From NCBI GenBank assembly GCA_045629205.1, contig JAZQQT010000187.1, positions 1-50,999 on the forward strand: a DNA stretch of 50,999 bases, in the 5' to 3' direction. The position numbers and the translations under genes were made by a program. Positions 4,590-25,223 of the stretch are shown here, in pieces (the stretch's first letter is position 1; every line of letters starts with the position of its first letter). Source of the DNA: Eubacteriales bacterium. Its GTDB lineage: Bacteria; Bacillota; Clostridia; Oscillospirales; UBA644. The notes beneath the pieces were generated by a model that was given only the letters and a program-made list of their open reading frames with translations, made no database searches and was not told the origin of the DNA.

Positions 4590-5495
4590 CTAAGCATTGT
4601 CAATGTCAAAGCATATATTTATATTTTCGTTCCGGACTGATTGATATATTGCAGAATCAGGGTTCTTTATTCCTGTCGGCTTTTTGTTTTGTTTTATTAA
4701 AGGTAATATCCATATTATTATCGCAATCAAAACCGCCGAATATGAAATCAAAACCGGGATCTTCTTTGTTCTTGCATTTTTCTCGGTAACGGTTTCAACA
4801 CAAGGACCTATATATTCGCATTCGGGACATTTGAGACTCCGGGTTATATGTGAATGTCTTGTGCGGATATAGTTAATAAAAGTCGGTTTGAAAGTATGAC
4901 CGCATTCAGGACAGGTATATACTATTTTATTATAACAATACAGGGCAAAAAATATTATTCCCGAAACGGCAAGAGGGATATATACCGCCGCTAAAGGCCA
5001 CCATATTCCGGTTTTGATCCAATAGACGATGAATGTAGGTAACGCAACAATAAAGGCAATTGCCGTTCGGGCAGCCGGAATACGTAATTCTTCGATCTGC
5101 TCTTTTATTTTCATCTTTTTCACTGTATCTCCGAGTTTGCATATCGGAATATCATATTTCCCGAGATACTGTTTCAGTTCAGTGATTTTTTCAAGCTTTT
5201 TATTGCATATATCTATTTCGTTTCTGATTTCCGCTTCTGTCTGATTAACAAATATATCTATGATTTTTGCCGAATTGTTTTCTTCAAACAGTCTGACTAT
5301 ATCTTTTACGGACATTCCGATTTCACGCAAATAACAAACAGTTTTGAGCTTTTCGATATCGTCATCGGTATATACTCTTTTCTGTCCGCTTCCTGTTTTC
5401 TTTGCATTAAGCAGTCCGCAGTTATCGTAATACTGCACTGTTCTGACGGTAACGCTGCAGATTTTTGCAGCTTCTCCGGTTGAATATTCAGCCAC
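4590..5495 (-). CDS. MerR-family transcriptional regulator fused to 3 TM helices and a CxxC...CxxC zinc ribbon
   Basis: GTG start at 5495 after GGGGGA. N-terminus YSTGEAAKICSVTVRTVQYYDNCGLL is a MerR HTH, followed by a coiled-coil region. Then two hydrophobic helices, CPECGHTF...CPECEY, and a third helix. Ends in TAG. Confidence 0.8.
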   Translation of the reverse strand: MAEYSTGEAAKICSVTVRTVQYYDNCGLLNAKKTGSGQKRVYTDDDIEKLKTVCYLREIGMSVKDIVRLFEENNSAKIIDIFVNQTEAEIRNEIDICNKKLEKITELKQYLGKYDIPICKLGDTVKKMKIKEQIEELRIPAARTAIAFIVALPTFIVYWIKTGIWWPLAAVYIPLAVSGIIFFALYCYNKIVYTCPECGHTFKPTFINYIRTRHSHITRSLKCPECEYIGPCVETVTEKNARTKKIPVLISYSAVLIAIIIWILPLIKQNKKPTGIKNPDSAIYQSVRNENINICFDIDNA

Positions 5496-5587
5496 TTTTT
5501 TATTTCCCCCATCCTGCGATGTTTTTTCAGCTTCGGAATCTTCCGCTTTATCTGCTTGAAGTGTGCTTTTTTAACATATCCGCCGTC

Positions 5588-5618
5588 ATTATATCACATG
5601 ACATTACATTACTGTCAA
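5588..5618 (-). promoter_or_regulatory. sigma-A-type promoter with 19-nt spacer (MerR-type architecture)
   Basis: Minus strand reads TTGACA-gtaatgtaatgtcatgtga-TATAAT. The spacer is 19 nt and contains the dyad TGACA-N9-TGTCA. About 85 nt upstream of the MerR start. Confidence 0.6.
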
Positions 5619-5622
5619 TACG

Positions 5623-5635
5623 TGACGTTACGTCA
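5623..5635. promoter_or_regulatory. perfect 6-1-6 palindrome tgacgt-t-acgtca just upstream of the -35
   Basis: Read directly from the sequence. Candidate additional regulator-binding site. Confidence 0.35.
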
Positions 5636-5685
5636 TCTAAACGGAATTCATAAAAAGTTAAAAAACATCATACGGCTTTTGCAGA

Positions 5686-5735
5686 TAAAAAATCACTCAC
5701 GACCTGATAACTAAGTCGTGAGTGATAATTTTTTC
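5686..5735 (-). terminator. rho-independent terminator (bidirectional shape) after the 166-aa secreted-protein gene
   Basis: 12-bp stem atcactcacgac / gtcgtgagtgat (5692-5703 / 5715-5726), flanked by A- and T-runs. Confidence 0.8.
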
Positions 5736-5741
5736 TAAAAC

Positions 5742-6242
5742 TTATGATAAATTGCCGTAAGTATCGCAGGTAAGGCTTATATCTATGTTATTTGTTTCTA
5801 ACACGATCAAACCAAGAAGTTTCCTTTCAAATTTTCCGTATCCGTGAGCAACATTGCCTGAAATGGATGTTGAGCCATCACTGAAAGACCAAATAGATGA
5901 ATTGTTCTCAACCGAGTAAGTAGCATTTGTGCATGTTGAACTTACTCCGGGAATATATGAGAATGTTGCGGTCAAACCATATCGCCAGACAAGGTTTCCG
6001 TTTGAATCTTGACGAGTTACATATTTGGTTCCATCTTTTATTCCGGATGCTTTTGTTGAATTCTTTGTAACTAAAACTATAGAAATACATCCGCCATCGT
6101 CTGTTTTGATGGTTTTTATCTCATTACAATCGAAAACGCAATCTGTTGCAGTGATTTTGGACGAGGCAAATGATGTTGAAGCAAAACAAATAGTTGATAA
6201 AACAAAAACCAAAATAAAAATTAATGTTTTTTTCATGTTCAT
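5742..6242 (-). CDS. hypothetical secreted protein
   Basis: 166-aa ORF with signal peptide MNMKKTLIFILVFVLSTICFASTSFASS. Several Cys residues. No recognisable family. Confidence 0.6.
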   Translation of the reverse strand: MNMKKTLIFILVFVLSTICFASTSFASSKITATDCVFDCNEIKTIKTDDGGCISIVLVTKNSTKASGIKDGTKYVTRQDSNGNLVWRYGLTATFSYIPGVSSTCTNATYSVENNSSIWSFSDGSTSISGNVAHGYGKFERKLLGLIVLETNNIDISLTCDTYGNLS

Positions 6243-6259
6243 TTTCTCCTTTTTAGTTA

Positions 6260-6622
6260 TTAATCGGTAATTGTGATGTTAATAGTATTGAAAAGACTTT
6301 CAATATGTGGATACAAAATAATCGCAACAACAATAAAAAGAATAATTAAACCAAGCAATATAATTTTTACTCTCCGAGATTTTTTTACTTTTTTTATTAA
6401 CTCTGTATAATCATTATTTCTGATAAATTCTTTTGCAACAACCTCAGGATAACCGAAAGCTTCACAAAGAGAAATATAACTGACGTCTGAATGATTATTA
6501 ATATATTCATCAATATCGTTTGAAATATCCGAAATAAATGTTTTTTTATTTTTTCCTATTTCTCGAAGACCTTTTTTCAACACATTAATATATTGTTTTT
6601 TGCAGGCAAGAATATTGTTCAT
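6260..6622 (-). CDS. PadR-associated membrane-anchored protein (DUF1700-like)
   Basis: 120-aa ORF. The N-terminal soluble part resembles the DUF1700 pattern (KKGLREIGKNKKTFISDISNDIDEYI...AFGYPEVVAKEF), followed by a single C-terminal TM. Lies immediately downstream of the PadR gene. Confidence 0.5.
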   Translation of the reverse strand: MNNILACKKQYINVLKKGLREIGKNKKTFISDISNDIDEYINNHSDVSYISLCEAFGYPEVVAKEFIRNNDYTELIKKVKKSRRVKIILLGLIILFIVVAIILYPHIESLFNTINITITD

Positions 6623-6694
6623 ATATGCAGAACTAATTCACGAATGAGTGATATCCTTTCTTTTTTATTTGGGATGAAATTTTAATTTTCCAAA

Positions 6695-7195
6695 TTAAGG
6701 TTTATCTGTTTTTTTTATATCAAAATCTGTATAATTGAGATATTCCGAAATAATTGTATCGGTAACATTAAACAAAGTATAAAACCTATCAATGCAACAA
6801 GCAAGATATTCCTTGCCCAAGTCTTCCAGATGATAATATTTACGAAACCTTTTTTCTCCAACCAATTCCTGCCGACAAGAGATAAGTCCTCTTTCCAACA
6901 TTTTATAAATTGGTCCGTACATTGATCCGTCTTTAATGTTGAACTCACCATTGCTGCGGCTTTGGATTTCTTGTTTTATGTCGTATGCATACATGTCTTT
7001 TTTGACTAGCATTGATAAAATCAACAGCTCAATCATTCCGTAACGGAAACTCTCATCAATTACGTTTGCCCAATTATCAGGCAACTTGCTTTTACACTTG
7101 TTATCCATATCAGAATTACTAATTACCTTTCTAAGTATAATCATATCAAAAAAATATATTTTGTCAATACTAAAACGAAAATAGTATATTGACAA
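6695..7195 (-). CDS. PadR-family transcriptional regulator
   Basis: Winged-helix PadR core: MIELLILSMLVKKDMYAYDIKQEI...GSMYGPIYKMLERGLI...KYYHLEDLGKEYL. The true start is probably internal (ATG at 7144 or 7108). Confidence 0.8.
   Translation of the reverse strand: MSIYYFRFSIDKIYFFDMIILRKVISNSDMDNKCKSKLPDNWANVIDESFRYGMIELLILSMLVKKDMYAYDIKQEIQSRSNGEFNIKDGSMYGPIYKMLERGLISCRQELVGEKRFRKYYHLEDLGKEYLACCIDRFYTLFNVTDTIISEYLNYTDFDIKKTDKP
7161..7195. promoter_or_regulatory. imperfect inverted repeat spanning both -35 boxes of the divergent promoters (candidate PadR operator)
   Basis: ttgtcaatacta (7161-7172) versus the reverse complement of tagtatattgacaa (7182-7195). The arms match apart from a 2-nt indel. 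Confidence 0.45.
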
Positions 7196-7217
7196 ACATA
7201 GTATCAGGTGATATTAT
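7189..7217 (+). promoter_or_regulatory. sigma-A-type promoter for the large secreted-protein gene
   Basis: TTGACA - 17 nt - TATTAT with a TGn extended -10 (ggTGaTATTAT). A second TATAAT sits inside the conserved 5' UTR near 7305. Confidence 0.5.
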
Positions 7218-7246
7218 AAATTATAGTAAAATGACGAAATGAATTT

Positions 7247-7396
7247 CCATTCATATTACACAAGGTTTTTTGCAGTAATACCATCAAATTACAAAATTTA
7301 TAATTATGACATAAACGGAGGTAAAAAAATGAAACGTAAAGCATTATCACTTGCTATGGCACTGTGTCTTGTTTTTTCGTTATTTAGCTGGTGTTG
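7247..7396 (+). repeat. copy 1 of a ~150-bp repeat (5' UTR + RBS + signal-peptide codons)
   Basis: Aligns by eye with 10921-11070 at offset 3674. The UTR core is nearly identical and the signal-peptide codons are about 90% identical. Confidence 0.85.
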
Positions 7397-10091
7397 CCAG
7401 ATTTCGGCGACAGAGGAAAAGGATACTACAAGAAATTATACTGTAAAAGATATTATCAGTGGAGCTGCCGCTGTTGATGAAGTATACGGAACACTAGAGG
7501 CAAAATCTGTCCCGGAAATAGTAGGATATGAGCGCGCTGTAGCCAAGAATCATATCAAACGGTTATATGATGATGAAAAAGATAATTTAAACAAAATCGT
7601 ATTTTTAAATGCCGACGGCTCAACAACAGAATATTTATTTGCTTATCCAGTAAAGTATTTAGCTGACGGAAAAATACAAGATATTACATTAGATATATCT
7701 AAAAATGAGTTATCTGAATCATTTGAAAGTTCGGCAAACTCATCAAAAACTGTTTTTCCATATAATCTTGCTGATGGAATTTCGCTGACAGGTAATAATC
7801 AAACTATATCACTTGTCCCGTATATTAATCAAACAGAGATTATAAACGCAACACTTATAGACCATAAAAAAGTAATTTATAAATTTGATGACACAACCGA
7901 ATATGAATATTCGTTAACGTATACCGGATTTAAAGAAAACATTATAGTAAGTGAATACACAGGTCAAACCGAATTTTTATTCTATTTATATACAAACGGA
8001 TTGAAACTTACGGAACAAGATGGGTCGTTTTCTTTGAAGAATAAAGAAAACGAAATATGTGCGGTCATTGGTGATGTTATTATTTTTTCGGCTGATGAAA
8101 AAAACAATTCAATGGGTAGATTGGAAGCATCCCAAATAATTGAAAACGAGCAGTATGTTTTACGTATTATAGTTGATCAAAACTATCTCATGGATGAGAA
8201 TACAGCATATCCAATTCGTATTGACCCGACTATTGAAATATGTTACAATAATAATGGTAGTAGTGCTATAGAAGATGTTACAATTAACAGTCTTTCTGGA
8301 ACGGACGGCAGTTCTGGATCATTACGTGTGGGGTTACGTGATACTTATGGCGTTTCTCGGATATTAATGAAATTTCCTGGCTTAAATTTGTCTTCACTTG
8401 GAACAAATTATTCTATTACAAATGCAACTGTTGAAGTCCGTGATGTAATGTGCGAAAGTGCTAGTATGACAGTTTATTGCTATGTTTTTTCAGGTAATGA
8501 ATGGAGTGAATCGACAGCAAATTGGTCTAATGTTAATCCGAACAATATTTCCACATACCTTTCTTCAAATGTTTTTTCATACTCAAATGGACTACAGCAA
8601 TCGACTCCGCATTGGTATTCTTTTGATATAACCGAAGCTGTTAAAGGCTGGAAGTCTGAATACTATAATATAAATAAGGGAATTATATTTAAAGCACCTT
8701 CTTCTGTTGAAAACGGTAACACATATATAAATAAAACCATTGCTTCATATAATCGTTCTTCATACAAGCCGACGCTTACAGTTACATATGGTTCAGATTC
8801 ACATTATATTCCTGATGATACATATTACGTTAATAATAAAAATTCCGGAAAATATTTGAAATATACATCATCTTCTACAACTGCTTCTTCTGGTTTAATT
8901 TCTTCATTAGGTGATTCTATTCGATGGGAAATCAGAGCCGTAGATAATGGCTATATTATCAGAGAAAAATCCAACCCCACTTATTATCTTAGCGTTCCAA
9001 CAAGTTCGTCAAGTAGCTCCTTATCAATAGTATCTGTTGCTGATGCTTCAATCCCAGAACGTTGTATATGGGATATTTCTTTAGCATCCGGATCAGGATG
9101 TCTAATAAAAAATAAATATAATTCACGGTATTTATATTATTCTGGGAATTCAGTCGCAACGTCTTTAACTCTCGGAACAACTGGAACTGAAACATATTTT
9201 TCCCGTGTTTGGAGGTTAGCAAGTACTTCTTCATATGGAAATACTTCAATGTATGAAGATAGAGAATTAATGAATGGCTTTTTAATTTCGTGTTGTAATG
9301 CAGATGTTGGAGAGACAATTAATCAAAGTATTGCAAAGAATCCAACAAATGCTTTATGGGCTAATAAATCCGATTTTGTATATACTACAAATTATGCTTC
9401 ATTACTAAGCATAGATGGTGATGAAATAAGTGCAATATCTTCTGGTTATGCATCAATTTCAGCGACGCATAAAGTAACTGGTTTGACACAATCCTTTTCT
9501 TTGACTATTTTCCCTGGAACATTTGATGTGTACATAATGGCAAGTGGGGTTTCTTTTGATAATTTCATTAATGGTAGTTTTGCTGGACATGGATGGATTG
9601 AAATTATCAGCAATTCAGCACACGAATATACTATTGGGCATTATAGTTTACCATCTTCTGAGACAGTTACAATTGGACGATGGGGAAGTCAGATAAACCA
9701 AAATGATGGTAATTTCGTCGGAATATGGTATAATCGAGAAGTCTATGAAATAAATGTAAATGGGAAATATGGGTCTAAAACTTATTCATATCTTACGGTG
9801 AATAAAAACAAATTAAATCAAATCACATCTCTTATCACATCTACATATAGTGGGTATAATTTAATTACTAACAACTGTGTAACTTTTGCAATTGAAGTCT
9901 GGAACATTTGTGCCGATACAAATAATACGATTGACACATCTATTTTTACGCCAAACGGATTGGTCAATGCAATTGAAGATTTAACATATCATTATTCAGG
10001 GAATTTAACTCGTATTCCTGAAACAATTATGTGTGGATTTTATAATGGAATAAATTATGTTGAACATATCGTTCCGAATTCTATTAGTTGA
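7329..10091 (+). CDS. large secreted multidomain protein: DNRLRE/CBM-like, ricin-type lectin-like and Ig-like segments, then a C-terminal His/Cys 'NC-motif' domain
   Basis: ATG at 7329 after GGAGG. Signal peptide MKRKALSLAMALCLVFSLFSWCCQISA. SRILMKFPG...NATVEVRDV...GNEWSESTANWSN resembles the DNRLRE domain. YYVNNKNSGKYLKY...WEIRAVDNGYII looks like a beta-trefoil lectin. The C-terminal 193 aa carry AGHGWIEII and NNCVTFAIEVWN. Confidence 0.75.
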   Translation: MKRKALSLAMALCLVFSLFSWCCQISATEEKDTTRNYTVKDIISGAAAVDEVYGTLEAKSVPEIVGYERAVAKNHIKRLYDDEKDNLNKIVFLNADGSTTEYLFAYPVKYLADGKIQDITLDISKNELSESFESSANSSKTVFPYNLADGISLTGNNQTISLVPYINQTEIINATLIDHKKVIYKFDDTTEYEYSLTYTGFKENIIVSEYTGQTEFLFYLYTNGLKLTEQDGSFSLKNKENEICAVIGDVIIFSADEKNNSMGRLEASQIIENEQYVLRIIVDQNYLMDENTAYPIRIDPTIEICYNNNGSSAIEDVTINSLSGTDGSSGSLRVGLRDTYGVSRILMKFPGLNLSSLGTNYSITNATVEVRDVMCESASMTVYCYVFSGNEWSESTANWSNVNPNNISTYLSSNVFSYSNGLQQSTPHWYSFDITEAVKGWKSEYYNINKGIIFKAPSSVENGNTYINKTIASYNRSSYKPTLTVTYGSDSHYIPDDTYYVNNKNSGKYLKYTSSSTTASSGLISSLGDSIRWEIRAVDNGYIIREKSNPTYYLSVPTSSSSSSLSIVSVADASIPERCIWDISLASGSGCLIKNKYNSRYLYYSGNSVATSLTLGTTGTETYFSRVWRLASTSSYGNTSMYEDRELMNGFLISCCNADVGETINQSIAKNPTNALWANKSDFVYTTNYASLLSIDGDEISAISSGYASISATHKVTGLTQSFSLTIFPGTFDVYIMASGVSFDNFINGSFAGHGWIEIISNSAHEYTIGHYSLPSSETVTIGRWGSQINQNDGNFVGIWYNREVYEINVNGKYGSKTYSYLTVNKNKLNQITSLITSTYSGYNLITNNCVTFAIEVWNICADTNNTIDTSIFTPNGLVNAIEDLTYHYSGNLTRIPETIMCGFYNGINYVEHIVPNSIS

Positions 10092-10102
10092 GGTTGAGAT
10101 AT

Positions 10103-10864
10103 ATGTTATATTTCTTACTTTTTATTTGTTCGTATCTTGAGCTTTTGTGTTCAACATTGATATATTCGATAGGAACTGGATTTATCATTCTTCCTGTTTA
10201 TCTGTTCAAGCTGCTTTGTCTGCCGCTAATTCATTTTGCGATAATAGGTAATTTTATTAAAAAGCAGACATTCAAAAAAAACACGATTCTTTTTTCTGTT
10301 ATTTTATTTTTAGTAACGATTGTTCTGAATGACTGTTTGTTATCTCTGCTTGCCCAAAACAAAAACGGATTTCTTTTGCTGCTGTGTTTTGATGTTATTT
10401 GGGCAATAATGTCCGGCTTGCTGATTGTCGGAAACAGTCTGATATTAAAATCAAATAAAAGCAGATTGTTTATAAACGCCGTAATTACAATCGAAGCAAT
10501 AGTCGCATTGGCGGGCAATATACTTGTGAATTTTTTTATAACTCCCGTAATAAAATCGTTCGATATTGATGCTCCGGAGGTAATTATATGGCCGCTGTGT
10601 GCAATCATGCTTTGTGTCGTTTCATATTTTCTCGGAAAAGATTTTTCGGCGAACCACAGAGTATTTAAACTGATTATTTGGTTTATAGGTGTTGCTGCTT
10701 CTGTATTTGTTGTGTTGTGGCTGTCGGGAACTCCGCACGAAATTCCGATAATGCATCCCGTTACAACTGCCGCGTGGATTATCCCGACTGTTATTGCTTT
10801 TCTGTGTGCCGTAACCGGAATGTGTTTGTCAGATAAAAGCAGACAGAATGAATTGTCAAACTAA
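10103..10864 (+). CDS. polytopic membrane protein (about 8 TM), candidate cognate/immunity partner
   Basis: ATG at 10103, 9 nt after a GAGG that overlaps the upstream TGA (10089-10091). Highly hydrophobic, no recognisable family. Confidence 0.6.
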   Translation: MLYFLLFICSYLELLCSTLIYSIGTGFIILPVYLFKLLCLPLIHFAIIGNFIKKQTFKKNTILFSVILFLVTIVLNDCLLSLLAQNKNGFLLLLCFDVIWAIMSGLLIVGNSLILKSNKSRLFINAVITIEAIVALAGNILVNFFITPVIKSFDIDAPEVIIWPLCAIMLCVVSYFLGKDFSANHRVFKLIIWFIGVAASVFVVLWLSGTPHEIPIMHPVTTAAWIIPTVIAFLCAVTGMCLSDKSRQNELSN

Positions 10865-10920
10865 ATGTAACACTTTTAAAGAGATGCTTTAAATATAAAA
10901 TTAAATATTATAAAAAAATA

Positions 10921-11070
10921 CATTTCATCTCACACAAGGTTTTTTGCAGAAATACCATCAAATTACAAAATTTATAATTATGACATAAACGGAGGTAAAA
11001 AAAAGAAACGCAAAACATTATCACTCGCTTTGGCACTTTGTCTTGTTTTTTCGTTATTCACGTGGTGCGG
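10921..11070 (+). repeat. copy 2 of the ~150-bp 5' UTR/signal-peptide repeat
   Basis: Same UTR, GGAGG and signal-peptide codons as 7247-7396. The position equivalent to the ATG (11003-11005) reads AAG. Confidence 0.85.
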
Positions 11071-11095
11071 TTTGACTTCGACTGCCGAAGATATC
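11003..11095 (+). pseudogene. 5' remnant of a paralogous secreted-protein gene (start codon lost, body replaced)
   Basis: Signal-peptide codons (K)KRKTLSLALALCLVFSLFTWCG are retained, with ATG changed to AAG. Composition switches to GC-richer transposase-like sequence near 11090. Confidence 0.6.
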
Positions 11096-11600
11096 AAGCC
11101 ACCTGATAATAACGAAGTCGTTCAGGCAACCGAACCGGGCGAAGAAGCGGTTCCGTATCTGCGTCTTTACGAAGAAGACCAAATTGTTTACGCGGACAGT
11201 GCGTATGTTGGCAAGAAATCCCCGACCATGTGGAAAACCGTGTTTGTGAAAAAGGGTATCGCGGCAAGCCGTTGACCGATGAGCAAAAGGAAAACAACAG
11301 AAAGAAATCCAAAACCCGCTGCCGGATCGAGCATGTATTCGGCTTTATGACCGGCTCCATGCACGGAATTACGCTTCGTTCGATTGGGATCGGACGTGCT
11401 GAATTCAATATTGGTCTGACCAATCTTGTTTACAACATTTGCAGGTATTCGATTTTAAAACGAAAAGAGGTGCATCTGGGATAACACTATGCCAAGTTGA
11501 GGAAATATCCCGTTTTCCGGGCTGATTCACCCCGATATGACAGGAAAACAGCATTTTCGGTTCTCGGTTTTGGAACTTGCTGTTTGAAAAACACAAAAAC
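11095..11600 (+). mobile_element. IS5/IS1182-type (DDE_Tnp_1) insertion-sequence remnant: 5'-truncated, frameshifted transposase
   Basis: ...QIVYADSAYVGKK in one frame (to 11275), then GYRGKPLTDEQKENNRKKSKTRCRIEHVFGFM...NLVYNICR in another (11230-11484). These are typical C-terminal DDE transposase motifs. The N-terminal two thirds are absent. Confidence 0.65.
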
Positions 11601-11644
11601 CGATATAATCCGATGGATAACCTAATTATTAGAAGGTATTATAA

Positions 11645-12082
11645 ATGAAGAAAAAAGTTATTATCGGCATAATCATTGTTGCCGTAATTGCAGTTATTCT
11701 TGCAGCATTTTTATTGTATTATTCAAAAGCAAAATTTACCGTCGAATTCACGGTAGCTTCTCCTGTAAATACGAGTGAAAACCATTACGGGATGATTATG
11801 GTTATTGAACATGAAAATCCGTTGTTCAAACCTTCCGAAGAGAAATTAAATAATCTTCTTGAAATTTACGATTGGCTTAACAGCGCGGATACCGATGTGA
11901 GAAAATATTTTAATAACGGTGCTTACAACATTGAAGGCTCCGGCGAGATGAAGGACGGAAAAACAACGCTTCGTTATAAAGGCAGCGTTACAAACGAAAA
12001 CGGCGAGCAAATCGAATATCTCAACGAAAAAACTTTTGATTTTACCGTTACGGATGATAGTAATTTTTTATTGGACAAATAA
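11645..12082 (+). CDS. hypothetical membrane-anchored protein
   Basis: 145-aa ORF. N-terminal TM MKKKVIIGIIIVAVIAVILAAFLLYY. No recognisable family. Confidence 0.55.
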   Translation: MKKKVIIGIIIVAVIAVILAAFLLYYSKAKFTVEFTVASPVNTSENHYGMIMVIEHENPLFKPSEEKLNNLLEIYDWLNSADTDVRKYFNNGAYNIEGSGEMKDGKTTLRYKGSVTNENGEQIEYLNEKTFDFTVTDDSNFLLDK

Positions 12083-12151: not shown

Positions 12152-14554
12152 TTATTTTGTATAATCTTTTTTGTTGAGATATGCGGGTTCGGGACCGACA
12201 TCGAAATACGTTCCGGATTCTTCTCTCGGACGTTTGCCGGAGAATACGGTAACGTCGCGGACGGTGCTTACAAAGCCTTTGGGGTCGATGAGCCAGAAAC
12301 GGAAGATATCGTTTCCGCCGTCGGCAAGACGTCTCTTGAGGTCATCGCTCCATATCGGGAAAATAACTTCACGGCGTTCGCCGGGTTTTACGTTAACGGT
12401 GAAATCGTGCCATCTCATAGTCGAGTTACGGTCGGTAACACGAATCGTGCATTCGGCAAGATTGATATCGTTATACTGATTCCAGAGTTCAAAGCGAAGT
12501 CCTTCGTCGCCTTCGAACCACTCGATCTCGTCGGGGAACCAAATCGGGCTGAGAGCGTTACGGAGAGACCAGAATGTGGGCTTGGGAAGAAGCTCCGGAG
12601 TCATAACGCCCCAGTCGCAGTCCTCGGAAAGAACCGTCCAGCTGAAAGGATGGCCGAGATTTACGGACGAACCGGAGGACATCCATGGGAAATACGCTGC
12701 TCCGAGAGCGGAAGGCTCGCTGCGGATAAAGCCCCAGTCGCGGCGGATAAGATCGTCGAACGCCTCAAGCTGAGTTGCTTCCTTTGAATAAGTCTTGCTG
12801 TCGTCGGCAATAACGATGCAGCAGTTTGCCGAACGGATTATATCGGGGAAGGCGCTGAAGCCCATAAATTCGGAGGAGAACCATGTGCCGCTCCAGCCGC
12901 GAGCAAGCGCTTCTTCCTTGGTATCGGTTTCCATGGTAGCTTCCCATGAGTAGGGGTTATCGCACTTTCCCTCGGCGAGAAAACGTTTAACATGCTTGAA
13001 TGAATAATGAGTATCGGCGATATCGCCCATACGCAGCTCGAAAATACCGGAAATAAGCTTGCCGTTCTGCGCCCATGCGGGTCCCGGCGGGGGGAACATC
13101 GTCAGACCGTTGGGGTCGAGACGCTAGGCAAATTTCTCATACATACGAAGATGCATCCATCCGTTTGCGGCAACAGCGTCCGATTCGGGCATATTTTCGT
13201 TACCTATGGACCATACCATAACGGAAGGATGGTTACGGTCGCGGCAAATACCGCCCTGAAGGCGGAACAGAGCGGGGCCTACCCACTCGGGATCGTGAAT
13301 ATAATGTGTGCCCCAGTCTACGGGAAGCTCCTGAGCAAGGTAAATACCCATTTCATCGCACAAATCAGCCAGCCAGCGAGGACCCATAAAGTGGGTGCGG
13401 ATGCAGTTTACATTAGCGAGCTTCATAAGCTCGAAATTACGGCGCAGCCATTCCTTCGGGGTATAAAGACCGTATTGCGGATGGCCTGTAAGATGATTGA
13501 CTCCGCGGAATTTGATGGGGTTTCCGTTAAGATACGGACGGCAATCCTTGAAATCCATACGGCGGAAGCCGACACGCCACTTGAATACGTCGGTCTCCAC
13601 ACCGGGAATTTCCGAATCGAGCTGCGCGGAATAGAGGAACGGATGTTCGTCGTTCCAGAGCATGGGATTATTGACAACGAGGTCGATATCTGCGGTTACT
13701 GTCTGTCCCGCGGGAACCTTAACGACTGCGTTCTGTTCCCCCGCAAATGCTCCGTTGGGGTCGGTGAGGATCAGTTTGAGCGTTGCGGAGACATCACTGT
13801 CGGAAGAGTTGCGAAGACGCGCCCAGCCTTTGACGTGGCCTGTAACGAGGTCTTCTTCGAGAGTTGCGGGAAGATAATAATCTTCGACATGGCAGCGTTC
13901 TTTTGCAAACAGATATGCGGGCTGCGCCATACCGCCGAATTCGTTTGAATGACGGGGCATATCCATCATGATAAACGGATGCTTACGAAGGATACGGATG
14001 GCAACCGTTACGGTCTGTCCCGGAGTTACCAAATCTGTAACGTTGCGGCAAACCGGAGTCAATCCGCTGCGGTGGTCCGCGACAAGCTTGCCGTTAACAT
14101 AAACCCGGCCGGCAGGATAAATCGCGTCGCAGCAGAGGAATATTTCTTTATTCTCAAATGATTTCGGAACGGTAACGGTGCGGCGGATCACGGCGCCGTC
14201 GTTGTCGTCGATGTGTGCAAGGCGGATACGGTCCCAGTTGCCGTAAAGGGCGGGATCGTAGTTGGGATCTGCCGTAAAGATACGTCCCGGCTGTTCCGCA
14301 TGCTCCCAATCAAGATCGTAGAGACCGGGAGCGGCAAGATCCTCCTCGGGTGAAGAGAACGGATAGCGGGCAACCGCCCAGCTGCCGGAAAGGTCGATTA
14401 TATTGTTTGTCGGGTATGCTTCCACAACGACCGGCGTGAGAGTTGTTTCCCAATCGCCGTTCCGCTGCGTGCAGACCGTTTCTGCTGTGGCAGCCAGCTG
14501 CGCGGCGATGACGGATTCCGCGAGCGCCTGCTCTTCTTTGGTGAATGGAGTCAT
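12152..14554 (-). pseudogene. GH2-family glycoside hydrolase (beta-mannosidase/beta-galactosidase-like) interrupted by one in-frame TAG at 13124-13126
   Basis: The 476-aa and 315-aa ORFs are in the same frame, separated only by TAG plus 8 sense codons. The upstream part carries NHPSVMVWSIGNEN (acid/base region). The downstream part carries FSSEFMGFSAFP (nucleophile-type SEFG motif). Junction reads ...YEKFA*RLDPNGL... Confidence 0.8.
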
Positions 14555-17694: not shown

Positions 17695-19677
17695 TTATTT
17701 CAGATTTGAGCCAACATCAGCGAAATCCCAGAGATCGAATTTCTCGAAATCGTATAATGAGGCATTTTCTTTGAGGCTGAAATCGCGGGCAGCGGGATCG
17801 ACAAAACCCGGATCTTCATCGTAATACTCAGCAAACGTGCAGTCGTTCAGATATTTGCCGGAATAGTTAAAGCAGTAATTTCCCATGTCAATTCCCTGTG
17901 TTGCAAGCGACTTATACATAAAGTCCGTTTCGGGTTTATCCGATATGAACATATTGTTTACAACCTTATCGGTTATAAACGGGAAATCTCCGGTAAACGC
18001 GAAGATATTATTGGTAATCGAAAGTCCGGCACCTTCTTCGTGTTTTGCGAGCGCACCGCCCGTAGTATCGTAAATCAGATTATGATTTATTTCCAAATAA
18101 GACGAACCTTCGTCGAGGAATATTCCGTTTCCGCCGTAACCCGATTCGGAATCGAAATAGTAACCGGAATGAGGGAAATCGCAATGAGAAACATTGTGTA
18201 TAACATTATATGTCAGGCTGCTTCCGGGCTGTTTTCCGAGAGTATAAATACCTCCCATATCGGAAAGGGCAAGCTGCCCGATATCGTAAATCAGATTGTG
18301 CGAAACTTTAATATTGTTTGTGGGTGACTCGGCGAGACCCCATACCCAACCGCAGGAAATACCGGTATAGTATCCGTCGTGAATCGTGTTATACGAAACT
18401 TCGGCGCCGTCGCAGTGGCCTATCAGCAAACCTTCGCCTGACTGATAAACACGGCTGAAATGCTCCACGAGATTATTTGTAAAGGTAAAGTTTCCGGTCA
18501 TATTCTCGGGGAACTCGATATCTTTCTTTTTAAAAGAATGAGAAACGCTGCATGCTGTCCCCCCGACACTGTCGAATCGGCAACTTTTAACGGCACAGTC
18601 ACGACAGAAAAGGCCGAAATAAATTCCGTTAAAGCCGATGTTTCTGACAGTGCATCCGTCAAAAATTATCCCGTTTGATTCCTCAAATGAAATCGAAGGA
18701 TAAAGACCGTTGCAGCCCTGTCCGATTTTTCGCGGGGTTCTGTCACGGCGTGTATCGGAAAAAACAATGTTTCTGAAAGAAATATTATCGGTTTTATTTG
18801 CAGTCATCAATGCCGACAGATATCCGTAGGTGAGTGAAAACCCGTCAATCGATTCGCCGTCCTGCGGAACATAATATACTTTGCTTTCGGCGATGTCAAG
18901 ATACCACTGTCCCGGATTTTTAAGCATGGATTTTATGTTTTCAAAACGGTATCTGAATCCGTTTCCGCTGTATGACATGGTTTTTTCGCCGACATCGATT
19001 CTGATGATTCCGGATTCGAAATCGACCGACATGATCTTGTTGATTTGTTCTGTCCAGGGAGAATTCAGAATACGGATATAAACTTCATCGTCGGAGATAA
19101 ATTCCGGCATGTTCTCTTTATCTAGCTGATAAAACGACATTGTGCTGTCGCCGCCGACAGAGGTAGGATCGGAAACAGGTTCGCCGATAAAATATGAATT
19201 TTCGGGATAAAAAGTTGTGGGAAGATGCCCGTCTTTTCCGTAAAGAGCCATAAAATCTTCGCCCTGCGGAACATCTGCAACCCATGCGGTCACGCCGTTG
19301 ATTTCGGTCGTCTGCCAGCCTGTTATTTGTTTTCCTCCGCTGATAACGACTTCCTCATCGGGATAAGCGGAATAAACCGCATTATTCCGGTCTGTCTCGT
19401 CGAAGACGACCGTTTCATCAAGATAATATGTTCCTCCCCTGAACCATACGGTTACGGCTTCGCTGCCGGCAACCGATTTGGCTTTTTCTTTTGCCGCCGC
19501 AAATGAAGCGAGAGGACTGTCTTGTGTTCCGGGATTTGAATCGTTGCCGTCTGTTGCCACAAAAATGTCGTCAGCGCCCGGAGTTATGTCCGGATCGTTA
19601 TTTTCTTCCGCACTGAAAACGGCAAACATTGCCAAAAGTAACACTAAAACAAGAGAAAGAGAAATGGTTTTTTTCAT
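17695..19677 (-). CDS. secreted right-handed parallel beta-helix repeat protein (pectate-lyase fold), paralogue 1
   Basis: Signal peptide MKKTISLSLVLVLLLAMFAVFSA. N-terminal cap IFVATDGNDSNPGTQDSPLASFAAAKEKAK. Repeated NxxxxG/IHD-type coils. Roughly 70% identical by eye to the adjacent gene. Confidence 0.75.
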   Translation of the reverse strand: MKKTISLSLVLVLLLAMFAVFSAEENNDPDITPGADDIFVATDGNDSNPGTQDSPLASFAAAKEKAKSVAGSEAVTVWFRGGTYYLDETVVFDETDRNNAVYSAYPDEEVVISGGKQITGWQTTEINGVTAWVADVPQGEDFMALYGKDGHLPTTFYPENSYFIGEPVSDPTSVGGDSTMSFYQLDKENMPEFISDDEVYIRILNSPWTEQINKIMSVDFESGIIRIDVGEKTMSYSGNGFRYRFENIKSMLKNPGQWYLDIAESKVYYVPQDGESIDGFSLTYGYLSALMTANKTDNISFRNIVFSDTRRDRTPRKIGQGCNGLYPSISFEESNGIIFDGCTVRNIGFNGIYFGLFCRDCAVKSCRFDSVGGTACSVSHSFKKKDIEFPENMTGNFTFTNNLVEHFSRVYQSGEGLLIGHCDGAEVSYNTIHDGYYTGISCGWVWGLAESPTNNIKVSHNLIYDIGQLALSDMGGIYTLGKQPGSSLTYNVIHNVSHCDFPHSGYYFDSESGYGGNGIFLDEGSSYLEINHNLIYDTTGGALAKHEEGAGLSITNNIFAFTGDFPFITDKVVNNMFISDKPETDFMYKSLATQGIDMGNYCFNYSGKYLNDCTFAEYYDEDPGFVDPAARDFSLKENASLYDFEKFDLWDFADVGSNLK

Positions 19678-19692
19678 ACAAAAGTCCTTTTT

Positions 19693-21726
19693 TTAATCAA
19701 AATTACATCCGACGTCATTAACATTCCAAATTTCAAATCCCTCGAAATCGCGCAGCGCAGCATCATCTTTAAGAGTAAAATCATAATTCAGAGCATCGGT
19801 AAAACCGGGATCCACATCAAAATTATCGTCAAACTCAAAAGCGTCACGGTAAGTTCCGGAAAAGTCGTAACAATAATTGAAATTACCGATTGCGATGATT
19901 TTCTGGCTTGTAAATCCGAAGCTTATGTCCGGATCATTGTTTAAGTAAACGTTTTTATATGTTGTTTCCATAATTCCGGGGAAATCGCCGACAAAGGCAA
20001 ATATGTTATTTGCAACTATAAGATCAACGCCTTCCTGATTCTTTGCGACAGCGCCTCCGGTCGTGTTATACACAAGGTTATATTTTACATCCATATAGGA
20101 AGATCCTTCATCAAGGAAGATACCGTTGCCGCCGTAGCCGCCCGAGCCTTCTCCGTTCCAACCCGATTTCGGGAAGAGGCAGTGAGAAATGTTATATATC
20201 GTGTTATAAAGGAGGCAGCTGCCGGGCTGCTGTCCGAGCATATATATACCGCCAAGATCGGAAAGACATCCCTGTCCGATATCGTAAATAAGATTATGCG
20301 TAACTTTGATATTGTTGGTCGGAGATTCGCCGAGCCCCCATACCCAGCCGCAGGAAATACCGGTATAGTATCCGTCGTGAATCGTATTATACGAAACGTC
20401 GGCGCCGTCACAGTGACCTATCAGCAAGCCTTCGCCATGCTGATATACGCGGCTGAAACGTTCAACAAGATTGTTTGTGAATGTAAAATTACCGGTCATA
20501 TCCTCGGAATAAGTAACTGTGGAATGAGTAACGTTGCATGCCGTTCCGCCAATACTGTCGAAATGACAGTTTGAAACGATACAATCACGGCAATACGGAC
20601 CGAAATACAGTCCGTTGAAGCCGGTATTCTTAATTGTGCAGGCATTGAATTTTATATTGTTTGATTGCACGAAAGAAACCGCGGGATTAAGTTGGTTACA
20701 GCCCTGTCCGACATGGAGGCCGACTCTGTTACGTCTCGAATCCGAGAAGGTAAGTTCGGCAAAAACAAGATTATCGATATTACTTGCATCGACAAGTTTC
20801 ATCAGGTTGCCGTAAACGAGAGTAAATCCGTCTATGGTTTCGCCGCTCTGAGGAACATAATAAACCTTGCTTTCTGCGACATCAAGATACCACTGACCCG
20901 GGTTTTTAAGCATGGATTTAATATTTTCAAAACGGTATCTGTAACCGTTGCCGTTATAGTGCATCGTTGTTCCGCCGACATCAAAGGTCAGTATGCCGGT
21001 TGTGAAATCAACAGATAAAACTCTGTTTATCTGCTCTGCCCATGGATCGTTCAGAACACGGATAAACACGCCCTCATCCGCTATGAATTCGGGCATGTCG
21101 GACGTATCAAGCTGATAATATGCTTTTGTATAATCACTATTGCTGACAGGATCGCCGTTCAGATACGTTCCTTCGGGATAAAACGTGGTTGAAAGATGAC
21201 CGTTTTTGCCGTAAAGAGACATAAAATCTTCACCCACGGGAACATCTGCGACCCAGGCGGTCACGCCGTTGATTTCGGTCGTCTGCCATCCGGTAATCTC
21301 TTTTCCGCCGCTGATAACGGCTTCTTCATCGGGATAGCTTCTGTAAACTACGTTCTGACGGTCTGTTTCATTGAAAATAACAGTTTCATCAAGATAATAA
21401 GTTCCGCCGCGGAACCATACTGTTATCTTTTCATCTCCGGATACAGTCTTTGCCTTTTCTTTTGCGGCGGCAAAAGATGCGAGCGGACTGTCTTTTGTTC
21501 CTGAATTCGAATCGTTTCCGTCAGGAGCGACGTAAATATCGTTATCGCCGAATACGATTTCTTCGGCAGGTTCCCCATGAGGAACATCGGGATCATCTGT
21601 CGGATCCACTACAGGATCATCGGTAGGATCTTTCCCCGGATTGACGGGCTCTTCCGGATTGCTGCACGCAGCAGCCGCGGTGAATAAAAACAGAATTGCC
21701 AAAACCATTGCAAGAATTTTTTTCAT
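19693..21726 (-). CDS. right-handed parallel beta-helix repeat lipoprotein, paralogue 2
   Basis: Lipoprotein-type signal MKKILAMVLAILFLFTAAAAC. Pro/Asp-rich linker. Same beta-helix body as 17695-19677. Confidence 0.75.
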   Translation of the reverse strand: MKKILAMVLAILFLFTAAAACSNPEEPVNPGKDPTDDPVVDPTDDPDVPHGEPAEEIVFGDNDIYVAPDGNDSNSGTKDSPLASFAAAKEKAKTVSGDEKITVWFRGGTYYLDETVIFNETDRQNVVYRSYPDEEAVISGGKEITGWQTTEINGVTAWVADVPVGEDFMSLYGKNGHLSTTFYPEGTYLNGDPVSNSDYTKAYYQLDTSDMPEFIADEGVFIRVLNDPWAEQINRVLSVDFTTGILTFDVGGTTMHYNGNGYRYRFENIKSMLKNPGQWYLDVAESKVYYVPQSGETIDGFTLVYGNLMKLVDASNIDNLVFAELTFSDSRRNRVGLHVGQGCNQLNPAVSFVQSNNIKFNACTIKNTGFNGLYFGPYCRDCIVSNCHFDSIGGTACNVTHSTVTYSEDMTGNFTFTNNLVERFSRVYQHGEGLLIGHCDGADVSYNTIHDGYYTGISCGWVWGLGESPTNNIKVTHNLIYDIGQGCLSDLGGIYMLGQQPGSCLLYNTIYNISHCLFPKSGWNGEGSGGYGGNGIFLDEGSSYMDVKYNLVYNTTGGAVAKNQEGVDLIVANNIFAFVGDFPGIMETTYKNVYLNNDPDISFGFTSQKIIAIGNFNYCYDFSGTYRDAFEFDDNFDVDPGFTDALNYDFTLKDDAALRDFEGFEIWNVNDVGCNFD

Positions 21727-22928: not shown

Positions 22929-25223
22929 TCACTGCACTTGTGAAACATAATATTTTGCGAAATACGTGTCTCTTGCCGACTCTCCGCGCGTAACCGATCT
23001 CGAAGCCCTGTCGGACGGTCGTTCAAAGTTATAGCAAACCGAATAACCCGCGTCATAAGCGCCGTCGGCATCATTCCATACTGTCGAAAGAGTCTCCCAT
23101 GCAAGACGGTATCTGCTGTTGCTCTGTATCTCTATGGCAAAGAAATCAAGCTGAGCAGTTATATCGGATATTGAAACGCCGCGTTCCTTTACGAAATTGT
23201 AATATTCTGTTTTTCGTTCCTCGGATGTCCATTGGAACAATCCGTATCCGGCCTTGTCGGTGCAGAAATTCTTGTATTCGCCGCTGTCTACCGCCGCGGT
23301 ATAAGTTGCGTCGGAATATCCGAGAGATTTCTCGTAGATTCCTTCGAGATTATTGTTTCTGAAAGAACTTTCGGCTTTAATGTTTGCAAGAATACCCGAC
23401 GCTGCGGCGGTATTGAGATTCATTACCATCGTAAAATAATTATAACAGGTTTCCTCGTTTGTTTTCCCGATATAATACGGTGTTATCCGGTCTTCTCCGG
23501 GATCATCGTCAGGCGATATTTCTTCTTCTGTCCATTCCGAATGTATCGGTGAGAGCTGAGTAATATCATCTCTGATGCCGTTCCAGTCCATCGTGTTTAC
23601 TTTTCCGTCACGGTTTACATCCGCAACGTCAAGCAGGTAATCATCGGTTATTTTCGTAAGGCCCGTAATGTGATCACGTATACGGTTCCAGTCAACCGTA
23701 TTGATCACACCGTTTCCGTCGGTGTCTCCCGCAAGCAGCATCTCGACATTCTGAACAACATCCGTATCGGCAACAACCAATGTGTATTCACGTGAAACGT
23801 GGTTCTGCTTGGAAACGCGCAGAACATAATTTCCGGCTTTTACATTTTTTATTGAAAAATCTTTATAGCACTTGATTTCTTTGACCGTTACACCGTTTAA
23901 AATCAATTCGATCACGGTTACGGTCTTATCTTTTCCGAATGAACTTATACTCCCCGAAACGACGACTCCCTCGGTTTGCGGTTTTGGTATGATCTCGGTA
24001 TATTTCGATTCGCATAACGAGCACTTATAAACGGTTTGCCCGTCTTTGGATGCTGATGCGGGAACGGTATACCAGTATGTTTTGTAATCTGCGCAGGCGT
24101 GTCTGACAAATATTCTTCCGTCTGAAAGATGCTGATAACCTGACGTTATATCAGAATCGGGAAGGAGAGGGGTAATTGCCGAATACGATGTAAGATTCCG
24201 GAAATAACAACCGATTGCGTCTATAAAACCAATACTGTTTTCATTCTCGGCTTTATATATCCCCGTTACTCTTCCGTTTATATCTTTTAATATTGCATTA
24301 ACCGACGTAAGATCGGGTGTCCCGTTTACGTCAACAGATTCCGAAGAGCCGGTCTGAGCGACTTTTATTCCGGATAAAGGCATCAGAAGAATATTAACGC
24401 TACAGTCGGCATCTTTTACGGTAATCTTGGGATATCCTTCTTTGTTATATAAAATATTGATAAATGCGAAATCGGTCTGTGCGGCATGATATACTCTGTC
24501 GATTACGATATCTATCTTACCGGCTTTTCCGTTCCATACAGCCCCGCTTTCGACACGGATATAATCACTCGGCTGCTGCATATAATACGCTTCGATATCA
24601 ACTTTATATGTTTTATCGCTTCCGAGCGGAGTTCCGAACGAAACGCAGCCTTTTACCTTATTTGCATAAAACTCGCCTTCGGTAAAAGAGAATCCGACTG
24701 ATGTCACGGTGCCGACGTCGATCAACGATATATTCAGGGTTGAATAATTCAAAACTACCGAGGAAGAATTTTCGCCTGCCAATTCCGTTCCTTTTGCGCG
24801 GGAAACTCTGTTGAAGCCTATCGCAGACGAACCGATATCTATTTTATTAAACCGAACCGAAACATTCGCAAATTCCAAAGCGGACGAAACAGTAAAAGTA
24901 TCGACGGTTATGGTTACGTTTTTATCGGTCGGTAATTCATTTCTGATTACAATACTTTTTGCGTCCGGTGTTTTATCCCCCGAAACAGTATAATCGGTGT
25001 TTTCATCTGTCAGCAGAATAACATAATCGGTTTGAGAATCGGTTATTAAAGCAAATGCAGAATCAATGTCGGGAAAAGAATCGGTTTTTATGCCGTTTGC
25101 ATATAAAACCACGCCGTTATCGGAAGCCAGAGGCGATTCGGAGGGCTCGGCAAAAACACAGAGTCCGAACCATAGAAACAATACAGCGGCGACTAAAATC
25201 AAAATATGTTTTCTGATCTTCAC
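22929..25223 (-). CDS. secreted protein with type-I dockerin and C-terminal phage-tail-lysozyme-like (peptidoglycan hydrolase) domain
   Basis: GTG start after GGAGG, then a signal peptide. Dockerin duplicated Ca-binding loops: GDTDGNGVINTVDWNRIRDHI / DVNRDGKVNTMDWNGIRDDI. C-terminus ASGILANIKAESSFRNN...GYGLFQWTSEERK...AQLDFFAIEI resembles the phage tail lysozyme family. Confidence 0.75.
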   Translation of the reverse strand: MKIRKHILILVAAVLFLWFGLCVFAEPSESPLASDNGVVLYANGIKTDSFPDIDSAFALITDSQTDYVILLTDENTDYTVSGDKTPDAKSIVIRNELPTDKNVTITVDTFTVSSALEFANVSVRFNKIDIGSSAIGFNRVSRAKGTELAGENSSSVVLNYSTLNISLIDVGTVTSVGFSFTEGEFYANKVKGCVSFGTPLGSDKTYKVDIEAYYMQQPSDYIRVESGAVWNGKAGKIDIVIDRVYHAAQTDFAFINILYNKEGYPKITVKDADCSVNILLMPLSGIKVAQTGSSESVDVNGTPDLTSVNAILKDINGRVTGIYKAENENSIGFIDAIGCYFRNLTSYSAITPLLPDSDITSGYQHLSDGRIFVRHACADYKTYWYTVPASASKDGQTVYKCSLCESKYTEIIPKPQTEGVVVSGSISSFGKDKTVTVIELILNGVTVKEIKCYKDFSIKNVKAGNYVLRVSKQNHVSREYTLVVADTDVVQNVEMLLAGDTDGNGVINTVDWNRIRDHITGLTKITDDYLLDVADVNRDGKVNTMDWNGIRDDITQLSPIHSEWTEEEISPDDDPGEDRITPYYIGKTNEETCYNYFTMVMNLNTAAASGILANIKAESSFRNNNLEGIYEKSLGYSDATYTAAVDSGEYKNFCTDKAGYGLFQWTSEERKTEYYNFVKERGVSISDITAQLDFFAIEIQSNSRYRLAWETLSTVWNDADGAYDAGYSVCYNFERPSDRASRSVTRGESARDTYFAKYYVSQVQ

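Follow-up and report, generated by a model that had tools for sequence, protein, structure and literature searches.

The window, the whole stretch of 50,999 nucleotides (nt) analysed here, is contig JAZQQT010000187.1 of a Eubacteriales bacterium (assembly GCA_045629205.1). It is chromosomal, carrying pgk, tpi, secY, adk, map, rpoA and one ribosomal protein gene, and the DNA of the region studied is also present in gut and horse metagenomes. At 5742-11229 the G+C content falls to 25-37%, against 42-50% in the flanks, in agreement with the A/T-rich block described in an initial annotation of this DNA. Within the block a gene for an exported multidomain protein of 920 residues (7329..10091, + strand) is followed immediately by a gene for a membrane protein of 253 residues with eight predicted transmembrane (TM) helices (10103..10864, +), here called the 8-TM protein. 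The initial annotation had suggested that the two form a toxin/immunity-type pair.

The long open reading frame (ORF) of the large gene spans 7239-10091, and translation is taken to start at the ATG at 7329, which has a Shine-Dalgarno sequence (GGAGG) 8 nt upstream and yields a precursor of 920 residues. The upstream ATG at 7239 was ruled out, as it lacks a ribosome-binding site, would add 30 residues before the signal peptide and lies within the stretch that is duplicated downstream as 5′ untranslated region (UTR). The precursor opens with a typical n-h-c signal peptide (residues 1-27, 7329..7409, +) made up of KRK, a hydrophobic stretch at residues 5-23 and then ISA|TE, where cleavage was judged by eye; there is no lipobox. 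The Sec signal claimed previously is therefore present, while the 920 residues ascribed to the mature protein are those of the precursor.

Four segments follow on the same strand before the C-terminal domain of the protein is reached, or three if the region with no family of its own is set aside. This region, the N-terminal domain (approximately residues 29-295, 7413..8213), has no Pfam or PDB match, and its profile gave matches at chance level only when compared with the PDB. It is nevertheless conserved in relatives from other loci, with 46% identity across residues 1-487 in L003, 40% in L017 and 27% in a paralogue of 830 residues in L004. Next comes a CBM96/DNRLRE carbohydrate-binding module (residues 312-486, 8262..8786), recognised by PF24517 with an E-value of 6.5e-8 and 33 bits, above the Pfam gathering cut-off of 26; a NCBIfam scan at E-values up to 1 matched no family, and hence no DNRLRE model, to the large protein. 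The third segment is ricin-type beta-trefoil lectin-like (approximately residues 489-635, 8793..9233), with RicinB_lectin_2 at residues 496-562 slightly below its cut-off (22.1 against 25.6 bits). The fourth is Ig-like, or Big_2-like (approximately residues 636-728, 9234..9512), and is recognised via a homologue only, Big_2 being undetected in the window protein itself. The labels of the last two segments are sound because this homologue, 62% identical across residues 480-919, exceeds both Pfam cut-offs, with 42.9 bits for RicinB_lectin_2 (cut-off 25.6) and 23.1 bits for Big_2 (cut-off 22.8). The DNRLRE/CBM-like, lectin-like and Ig-like segments listed in the initial annotation are in this way all recovered, as is its distinct C-terminal domain: residues 729-920 (9513..10088) form a separate globular domain of 192 residues in an AlphaFold model with a predicted local distance difference test score (pLDDT) of 95.9. 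Sequence searches of the PDB with the whole protein, the C-terminal domain, the family profile and the family consensus gave nothing meaningful. PHROGs and NCBIfam hold no family for the large or the 8-TM protein, and neither protein was recorded in the contig index by exact look-up.

The C-terminal domain, here called the His-Cys domain, is covered by no curated family. A word-indexed search with it returned two metagenomic fragments only, and an exhaustive profile search of 1.84 billion representatives returned 398 proteins at E-values up to 1e-3, which sets the family at no fewer than 398 representative clusters at 50% identity, that is, at least 398. Among the matches listed that span the domain core (143), 109 are exported proteins or lipoproteins of at most 300 residues, mostly of about 210-230, and 15 are large proteins that end in the domain. 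Two pattern scans of 185,579 species genomes with C-terminal-domain patterns revealed no relative, alignments A2 and A3 being too divergent for such scans, and tblastn searches of plasmid and phage collections, with the domain and with the family consensus as query, gave no match.

In an alignment of 123 sequences the members are about 25% identical to the window domain, and His26 and Cys122 of the domain (His754 and Cys850 of the protein), 96 residues apart, are each present in 122. Asn33, Tyr73, Asn74, Glu76, Asn121, Trp130, Asn131 and Pro147 are near-invariant (Asn761, Tyr801, Asn802, Glu804, Asn849, Trp858, Asn859 and Pro875 in protein numbering), and the family motifs read GH(A/S/G)(F/W) and LL(T)NNCxxFA..WN. 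Modelled by AlphaFold with this alignment, the domain reached the pLDDT given above and a predicted template-modelling score (pTM) of 0.92. Cys122 opens a helix (122-133) and His26 opens a strand (26-33) of the sheet preceding it. A first AlphaFold run with an alignment of three sequences was useless (pLDDT 40.6) and is superseded. The conservation of the His/Cys pair, the Cys at a helix N-terminus and weak echoes of permuted NlpC/P60 enzymes speak against a plain binding module, an outcome that the initial annotation had named as fatal to its proposal; from sequence and model the domain looks catalytic.

The only recurrent database echoes of the domain are three Pfam families, matched below cut-off among the 123 members: Peptidase_C97/PPPDE in 31, DUF4105/Lnb_N in nine and LRAT in six. 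The window domain scores 14.5 bits against Peptidase_C97 and the family consensus 25.4 bits (E-value 1.4e-5, profile positions 51-121), and since the gathering cut-off is 29.2 bits the domain is not classed as PPPDE; the consensus also matches Lnb_N with an E-value of 3.2e-3. Where coordinates were printed, the C97 and LRAT matches fall on the Cys helix or upstream of it. The literature assigns PPPDE and LRAT to the NlpC/P60-like cluster, as members with a circular permutation, and counts DUF4105 as a papain-like family of recent recognition (PMC10318531); DUF4105 is also described as one of five clades of permuted NlpC/P60 (PMC12994826). The domain has the order required for this permutation, His before Cys, and, in the model, the secondary-structure placement that characterises the superfamily: a helix begins at the Cys, and the His lies on a strand of the sheet before it. 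This placement is that of a papain-like enzyme with circularly permuted order. An 'H-box ... NC-box' arrangement is common to the domain and to PPPDE/DeSI (Pfam Peptidase_C97), LRAT/PLAAT and YiiX (C92), and the Cys motif of the domain, Y-x-L-L-x-N-N-C-x-x-F, resembles the signatures of these families, among them the NCEHF motif of LRAT. The family described here differs from them in being extracytoplasmic, bacterial and always coupled to a membrane protein. Because Foldseek found no solved or viral match despite these consistent echoes, we regard the domain as probably a new family of circularly permuted NlpC/P60-type enzymes, outside any named family.

The coupling to a membrane protein is evident in the window itself. 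The TGA of the large gene (10089-10091) overlaps the GAGG (10090-10093) that precedes the ATG of the 8-TM gene at 10103, just as the initial annotation had it, and from this overlap the 8-TM gene is predicted to be translationally coupled to the large gene. The 253-residue product has eight hydrophobic segments and matches no Pfam, NCBIfam or PHROG family, and its description as a family-less polytopic membrane protein holds. Five 8-TM homologues gave no match to CPBP (CAAX protease / bacteriocin-processing) and no significant Pfam family at E-values up to 1. H44, F45, E131, E159, K189, W193, S200-V-F202, P211 and W225 are invariant across the homologues. The 8-TM protein diverges more than the enzyme domain, with identities of 42, 33 and 27% against 69, 63 and 54%.

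The neighbourhood of the domain is conserved among close relatives. In all seven loci (the window, L001, L002, L003, L004, L005 and L018) a homologue of the 8-TM protein is encoded directly downstream of the His-Cys domain, with an identity to the window protein of 33% in L001 (E-value 1e-34), 27% in L003 (E-value 9e-13) and 41-42% in L004, L005 and L018, and a partial match in L002. This pairing is independent of the size of the upstream protein, which may have 920, 937 or 499 residues; the protein of 937 residues (P0008, in L003) is a full-length orthologue. A word-indexed search of 5.8 billion proteins found no relative of the 8-TM protein other than itself and none away from the His-Cys domain. 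The 8-TM gene is accordingly found only beside this domain, and is not the housekeeping gene that it might have turned out to be.

In more distant family members the gene that follows is again one for a membrane protein, after a gap of 2-17 nt or in overlapping frames, and these partners belong to unrelated families. They have seven TM helices in L017, seven to eight in L008 and two in L006, L011, L012, L015 and L016. Among the 2-TM partners are proteins of only 88-129 residues, and those of L006, L011, L012 and L015 carry the motif QPRF...SSLGFLI. In L016 (2688-3416) the 2-TM partner is fused to a cytoplasmic GNAT acetyltransferase domain. Homology of the window 8-TM family to the partners in L008 and L017 was considered and rejected (hhalign probability <1%). 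A membrane protein gene thus follows the His-Cys domain in every locus examined, and the swap of one partner for an unrelated protein is typical of immunity genes.

The locus most instructive for the layout is L017. Its large protein of 1102 residues is 33% identical to the window protein in the His-Cys domain and 40% in the N-terminal part, and its genes are arranged as in the window, with a small secreted protein, DUF6120 and PadR on one strand and the large protein, the membrane protein and a second large paralogue on the other. The protein of 830 residues in L004 aligns with residues 1-602 of the window protein (26% identity, E-value 3e-38), has another domain at its C-terminal end and precedes a lipoprotein gene, next to which a weakly C39-like protein is encoded. 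The second paralogue in L017 has the same kind of alternative C-terminus, with an HG...C motif. Paralogues that share an N-terminal scaffold, differ in their C-terminal domain and precede other small genes are a mark of polymorphic toxins, and such paralogues are present here. The motif of the alternative C-termini, HTHG/HGH ... C(N/S)(T/S)G in L004 (4272-6764) and L017 (9218-12379), resembles by eye that of clan CD (caspase/gingipain-like) cysteine peptidases. The L004 version of the locus lies on a contig classed as viral by IMG/VR, beside LexA-like, ImmA-like, MazF-like and ParB-like genes.

Divergently upstream of the large gene lie three genes on the - strand. The PadR-family regulator (6695..7108, Pfam PadR 54.3 bits) is listed with an ORF that extends to a TTG at 7195, and a start at the ATG at 7108 is likelier because a promoter-like site at 7167-7140 (-) falls inside the longer ORF. 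This site and one at 7189-7217 (+) are the two best sigma-70-like matches in 5500-11700, each agreeing at 11/12 positions with an extended TG, and they stand back to back (7140..7217) as consensus matches for the PadR operon (-) and the large gene (+). Rfam gave nothing over 5500-11700, and the conserved 5′ UTR accordingly corresponds to no known riboswitch. Next to the regulator is a gene for a DUF6120 protein of 120 residues with a C-terminal membrane anchor (6260..6622, Pfam DUF6120 32.4 bits, cut-off 27), and then one for an exported protein of 166 residues with an N-terminal hydrophobic signal (5742..6242). The latter has no Pfam or PHROG family and is 41% identical (E-value 3e-29) to a protein of 150 residues at the equivalent position in L017, where the PadR-DUF6120 pair also lies upstream of the homologous large gene. 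The PadR module that the initial annotation saw next to the pair is indeed its neighbour, and more than a mere neighbour, being a conserved part of the locus. PadR, DUF6120, the 166-residue protein, the large gene and the membrane gene make up a conserved five-gene locus with its own regulator. The DUF6120 protein is the probable signalling partner of PadR, and by analogy the two look like a HAAS-PadR sensor dyad (bioRxiv 10.1101/2020.09.24.301986).

Downstream of the 8-TM gene, a decayed second copy of the 5′ UTR and signal-peptide region (10924..11091, +) was confirmed: 168 nt are 86% identical to 7250-7417, the start codon ATG has become AAG, and the copy runs into a DDE transposase fragment (11230..11484, +; Pfam DDE_Tnp_1 34.8 bits, profile positions 120-200 of 200). 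This insertion sequence (IS) remnant truncates the second copy, and its depth in metagenome runs is high and variable. Since the second large paralogue of L017 sits in the same position, after the membrane gene, the decayed copy is probably the stump of a lost paralogue, a whole gene having probably been lost at 10924-11484. Metagenome and metatranscriptome contigs from runs X1, X3 and X21 match the signal-peptide region (7329-7470) and then continue into unrelated sequence on either side. As they diverge outside the signal region, the same 5′ end seems to be common to several genes or strains. One X1 contig joins 7691 to 10292 with 9 extra letters, and could be a deletion variant or an assembly artefact. 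Gut metatranscriptome contigs match the 8-TM gene and the signal-peptide region, which hints weakly at their expression.

The hypothesis we favour, tentatively and at slightly less than an even chance, is that the two genes encode an effector and its immunity protein, a pair like Tox-Act1/Imm-Act1 with delivery by Sec. The large protein would be exported by Sec, and its CBM96/DNRLRE, ricin-type lectin and Ig-like modules would anchor it to glycans on the surface of the target, either a competing bacterium or perhaps a eukaryote of the gut. There the His754/Cys850 domain may act like a phospholipase or acyl-transferase, attacking a substrate that is acylated or linked to lipid on the external side of the membrane, while the co-translated 8-TM protein would block the enzyme in the membrane of the producer. 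The divergent PadR/DUF6120 pair would probably control expression. This hypothesis is favoured because a lectin scaffold, alternative C-termini on shared scaffolds and a partner that is replaced by non-homologues and diverges faster than the domain are found together, and because the locus is an A/T-rich islet with an IS remnant, occurs on a predicted viral contig and is absent from the 185,579 species genomes. Taken one step further, the scaffold-mounted enzyme may be a Sec-secreted, glycan-guided and lipid-attacking bacteriocin with a polytopic immunity protein under PadR/DUF6120 control, a type of delivery and immunity undescribed for this toxin class; we hold this fuller version to be possible and no better than that.

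The closest published parallel is Tox-Act1/Imm-Act1, an effector-immunity pair of the Salmonella type VI secretion system (T6SS) with a permuted NlpC/P60 core and the residues His43/Cys151 (PLoS Biol 2026, PMC12994826). Tox-Act1 is toxic only outside the cytoplasm and cleaves phosphatidylglycerol and phosphatidylethanolamine, and a 2-TM protein encoded downstream neutralises it. Among the members of its clade are proteins of gut Firmicutes fused to RHS (PMC12994826). Tox-Act1 and the window domain both have His before Cys (His43/Cys151 and His754/Cys850), a membrane protein gene next to them and a weak DUF4105 echo. The membrane-protein gene stands immediately after the domain in the window, L001-L005, L017 and L018. 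The enzyme acts outside the cytoplasm in one case and is predicted to be exported in the other, and members of the Tox-Act1 clade, some of them from gut Firmicutes, are C-terminal domains of large modular proteins, as is the window domain. The two differ in delivery, which is by T6SS, type V secretion system (T5SS) or RHS for Tox-Act1 and by a Sec signal with lectin modules in the window, and in the partner, which has 2 TM helices in Imm-Act1 and 8 here. Moreover, the strongest Pfam echo is PPPDE in the window against DUF4105 for Tox-Act1, and the likeness is drawn from the published description. A second parallel is the Sec-dependent WapA toxin of S. suis, which has a DNRLRE domain in its wall-binding part (PMC12704120). 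WapA, polymorphic toxin systems as introduced by Zhang et al. 2012 (in the form in which they are cited in PMC10318531) and the window protein share a Sec signal, an N-terminal binding part with DNRLRE, a variable C-terminal enzyme domain and a small gene next to it. The window protein differs in having no RHS or repeat shell, no pre-toxin domain and no orphan cassettes, and in its polytopic partner.

Several observations weigh against a toxin/immunity pair. Shared N-terminal scaffolds with varied enzyme domains also fit ordinary Firmicute cell-wall protein families, and the majority of the family are the small exported proteins and lipoproteins counted above (109 of the 143 core-spanning matches listed). 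L011 and L012 share a neighbourhood of YfhO, MgtC and TruB that looks vertically inherited and unrelated to conflict. Orphan toxin tips, orphan 8-TM copies, extra immunity genes or immunity arrays were not found when tblastn was run with three 8-TM proteins, each locus having one cognate copy. Neither the protein nor the window holds elements of T6SS, T5SS, the type VII secretion system, RHS or LXG, be it as a fusion or as a neighbour, and export relies on the Sec signal. All Pfam matches of the domain are below curated cut-offs, and a Foldseek search with the confident model returned nothing similar among solved or viral structures (best E-values 0.48 and 0.1), known permuted NlpC/P60 structures included; solved superfamily members named for comparison of the fold are, for example, 3EBQ, 2WP7, 6V98 and 3KW0. 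A PadR regulator with a membrane partner is more usual for envelope-stress responses (bioRxiv 10.1101/2020.09.24.301986). Toxicity and protection as such we infer by analogy. The proposal of the initial annotation consequently stands in part: the catalytic-looking domain, the 8-TM protein private to it, the alternative C-termini and the Tox-Act1 precedent support it, and the conserved non-conflict contexts, the lack of orphan immunity genes and of a secretion system, and the alternative offered by LnsA/LnsB and Lnb do not.

According to this alternative, which we consider a serious possibility although not a probable one, the pair is a two-component envelope enzyme in which the Cys-His domain caps its polytopic partner on the surface of the producer and the two together move acyl chains between membrane lipids and an acceptor in the envelope, for example the N-terminus of a lipoprotein, a lipoteichoic acid or a glycopolymer of the wall. 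The role of the lectin modules would be to bind this acceptor or to keep the protein in the wall of the producer itself, and PadR/DUF6120 would switch the system on under envelope stress. There is precedent in two systems that N-acylate lipoproteins at the outer face of the membrane: in LnsA of S. aureus, a Sec-exported NlpC/P60 (LRAT-like) His/Cys enzyme that is active only when docked on the polytopic LnsB and uses phosphatidylglycerol as acyl donor (PMC13559823), and in Lnb of Bacteroides, whose DUF4105 domain (Asn66-His49-Cys148) is fused to five TM helices (PMC11573676). Like the window pair, both combine an exported NlpC/P60-type His/Cys domain of about 190 residues with a polytopic partner, separate in LnsAB and fused in Lnb, and the spacing from His to Cys is 96 residues in the window domain and 99 in Lnb. 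Tight coupling to a membrane protein in every member examined, including small lipoproteins in conserved non-conflict contexts, is what such an enzyme would show, and the invariant polar residues H44, E131, E159 and K189 in or near the 8-TM segments are such as an active partner might keep. The lack of orphan immunity genes agrees with it, and so does a PadR/DUF6120 unit that is conserved with the locus and resembles the HAAS-PadR envelope-signalling dyad (bioRxiv 10.1101/2020.09.24.301986). In contrast, the partners of different subfamilies are mutually non-homologous and none is a CPBP protein like LnsB, which is unexpected for a co-catalyst. The window domain ends a lectin-rich protein of 920 residues, and its partner is neither CPBP nor the Lnb-type TM domain; LnsA/LnsB and Lnb are core genes whereas the window pair lies in an accessory islet, and lnsA/lnsB are a two-gene system whereas the window genes appear translationally coupled. 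About 730 residues of lectin modules would be surprising in a housekeeping envelope enzyme, and so would its location in an A/T-rich islet with an IS remnant, its occurrence on a predicted viral contig and its absence from the species genomes scanned.

The modules could also be read as those of a glycan-targeted extracellular hydrolase for nutrient acquisition or host interaction, with glycoconjugates of the host or its diet as substrates of a peptidase, isopeptidase or esterase activity, or of a peptidoglycan hydrolase or autolysin; the 8-TM protein would then transport the product or stem from a co-transcribed gene unrelated in function. Many carbohydrate-active and surface enzymes carry CBM96, ricin-type and Big_2 modules (PMC9971899), genes for GH2, GH28-like and beta-helix proteins are nearby in the window, the best Pfam echo, PPPDE, is an isopeptidase family, and the C-termini of the paralogues look like a cysteine peptidase. 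Yet membrane-protein coupling is strict throughout the family, 2-TM partners of 88-129 residues cannot be transporters, and the base composition and gene content of the islet are unrelated to those of the flanking glycoside hydrolase genes, all of which makes this explanation improbable. That the C-terminal domain is a non-catalytic binding module and its pairing with the 8-TM protein accidental would suit a domain with no match to a curated family or a solved structure. This we consider very improbable indeed, given that His and Cys are near-invariant at about 25% identity, that the Cys lies at a helix N-terminus and that the pairing recurs in every locus examined. Both a plain glycan-directed hydrolase and a non-catalytic module fit the data poorly.

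Beyond the islet, the two adjacent same-strand ORFs at 12152-14554 have 50-53% G+C. One, of 476 residues, has GH2 domains with a partial TIM-barrel match, the other, of 315 residues, has no family match, and they may be one split or frameshifted GH2 gene. Among the housekeeping genes, a protein of 764 residues (22929-25223) with a C-terminal phage tail lysozyme domain (Phage_lysozyme2, 87 bits) adjoins two large beta-helix proteins (17695-21726). A MerR-family regulator fused to a zinc-ribbon-like segment and hydrophobic stretches is encoded at 4590-5495, bordering the A/T-rich block on its left.

Here, we describe a large, previously unannotated domain family with a strict membrane-partner rule, and a branch of it in which the putative enzyme domain sits on a lectin scaffold that is exported by Sec and probably controlled by PadR. 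Should the pair be a toxin with its immunity protein, it would extend the lipid-targeting permuted NlpC/P60 toxins (Tox-Act1, TseH), which are contact-dependent weapons of Gram-negatives, by a version in gut Firmicutes that is freely secreted, guided by lectins and accompanied by a membrane immunity protein of a new kind. Should it instead be a two-part enzyme, it would be a widespread relative of LnsAB and Lnb, systems that tailor the surface lipids and lipoproteins read by innate immunity. Under either explanation, an unannotated domain family is defined by a simple rule, a His-Cys domain with a membrane partner.

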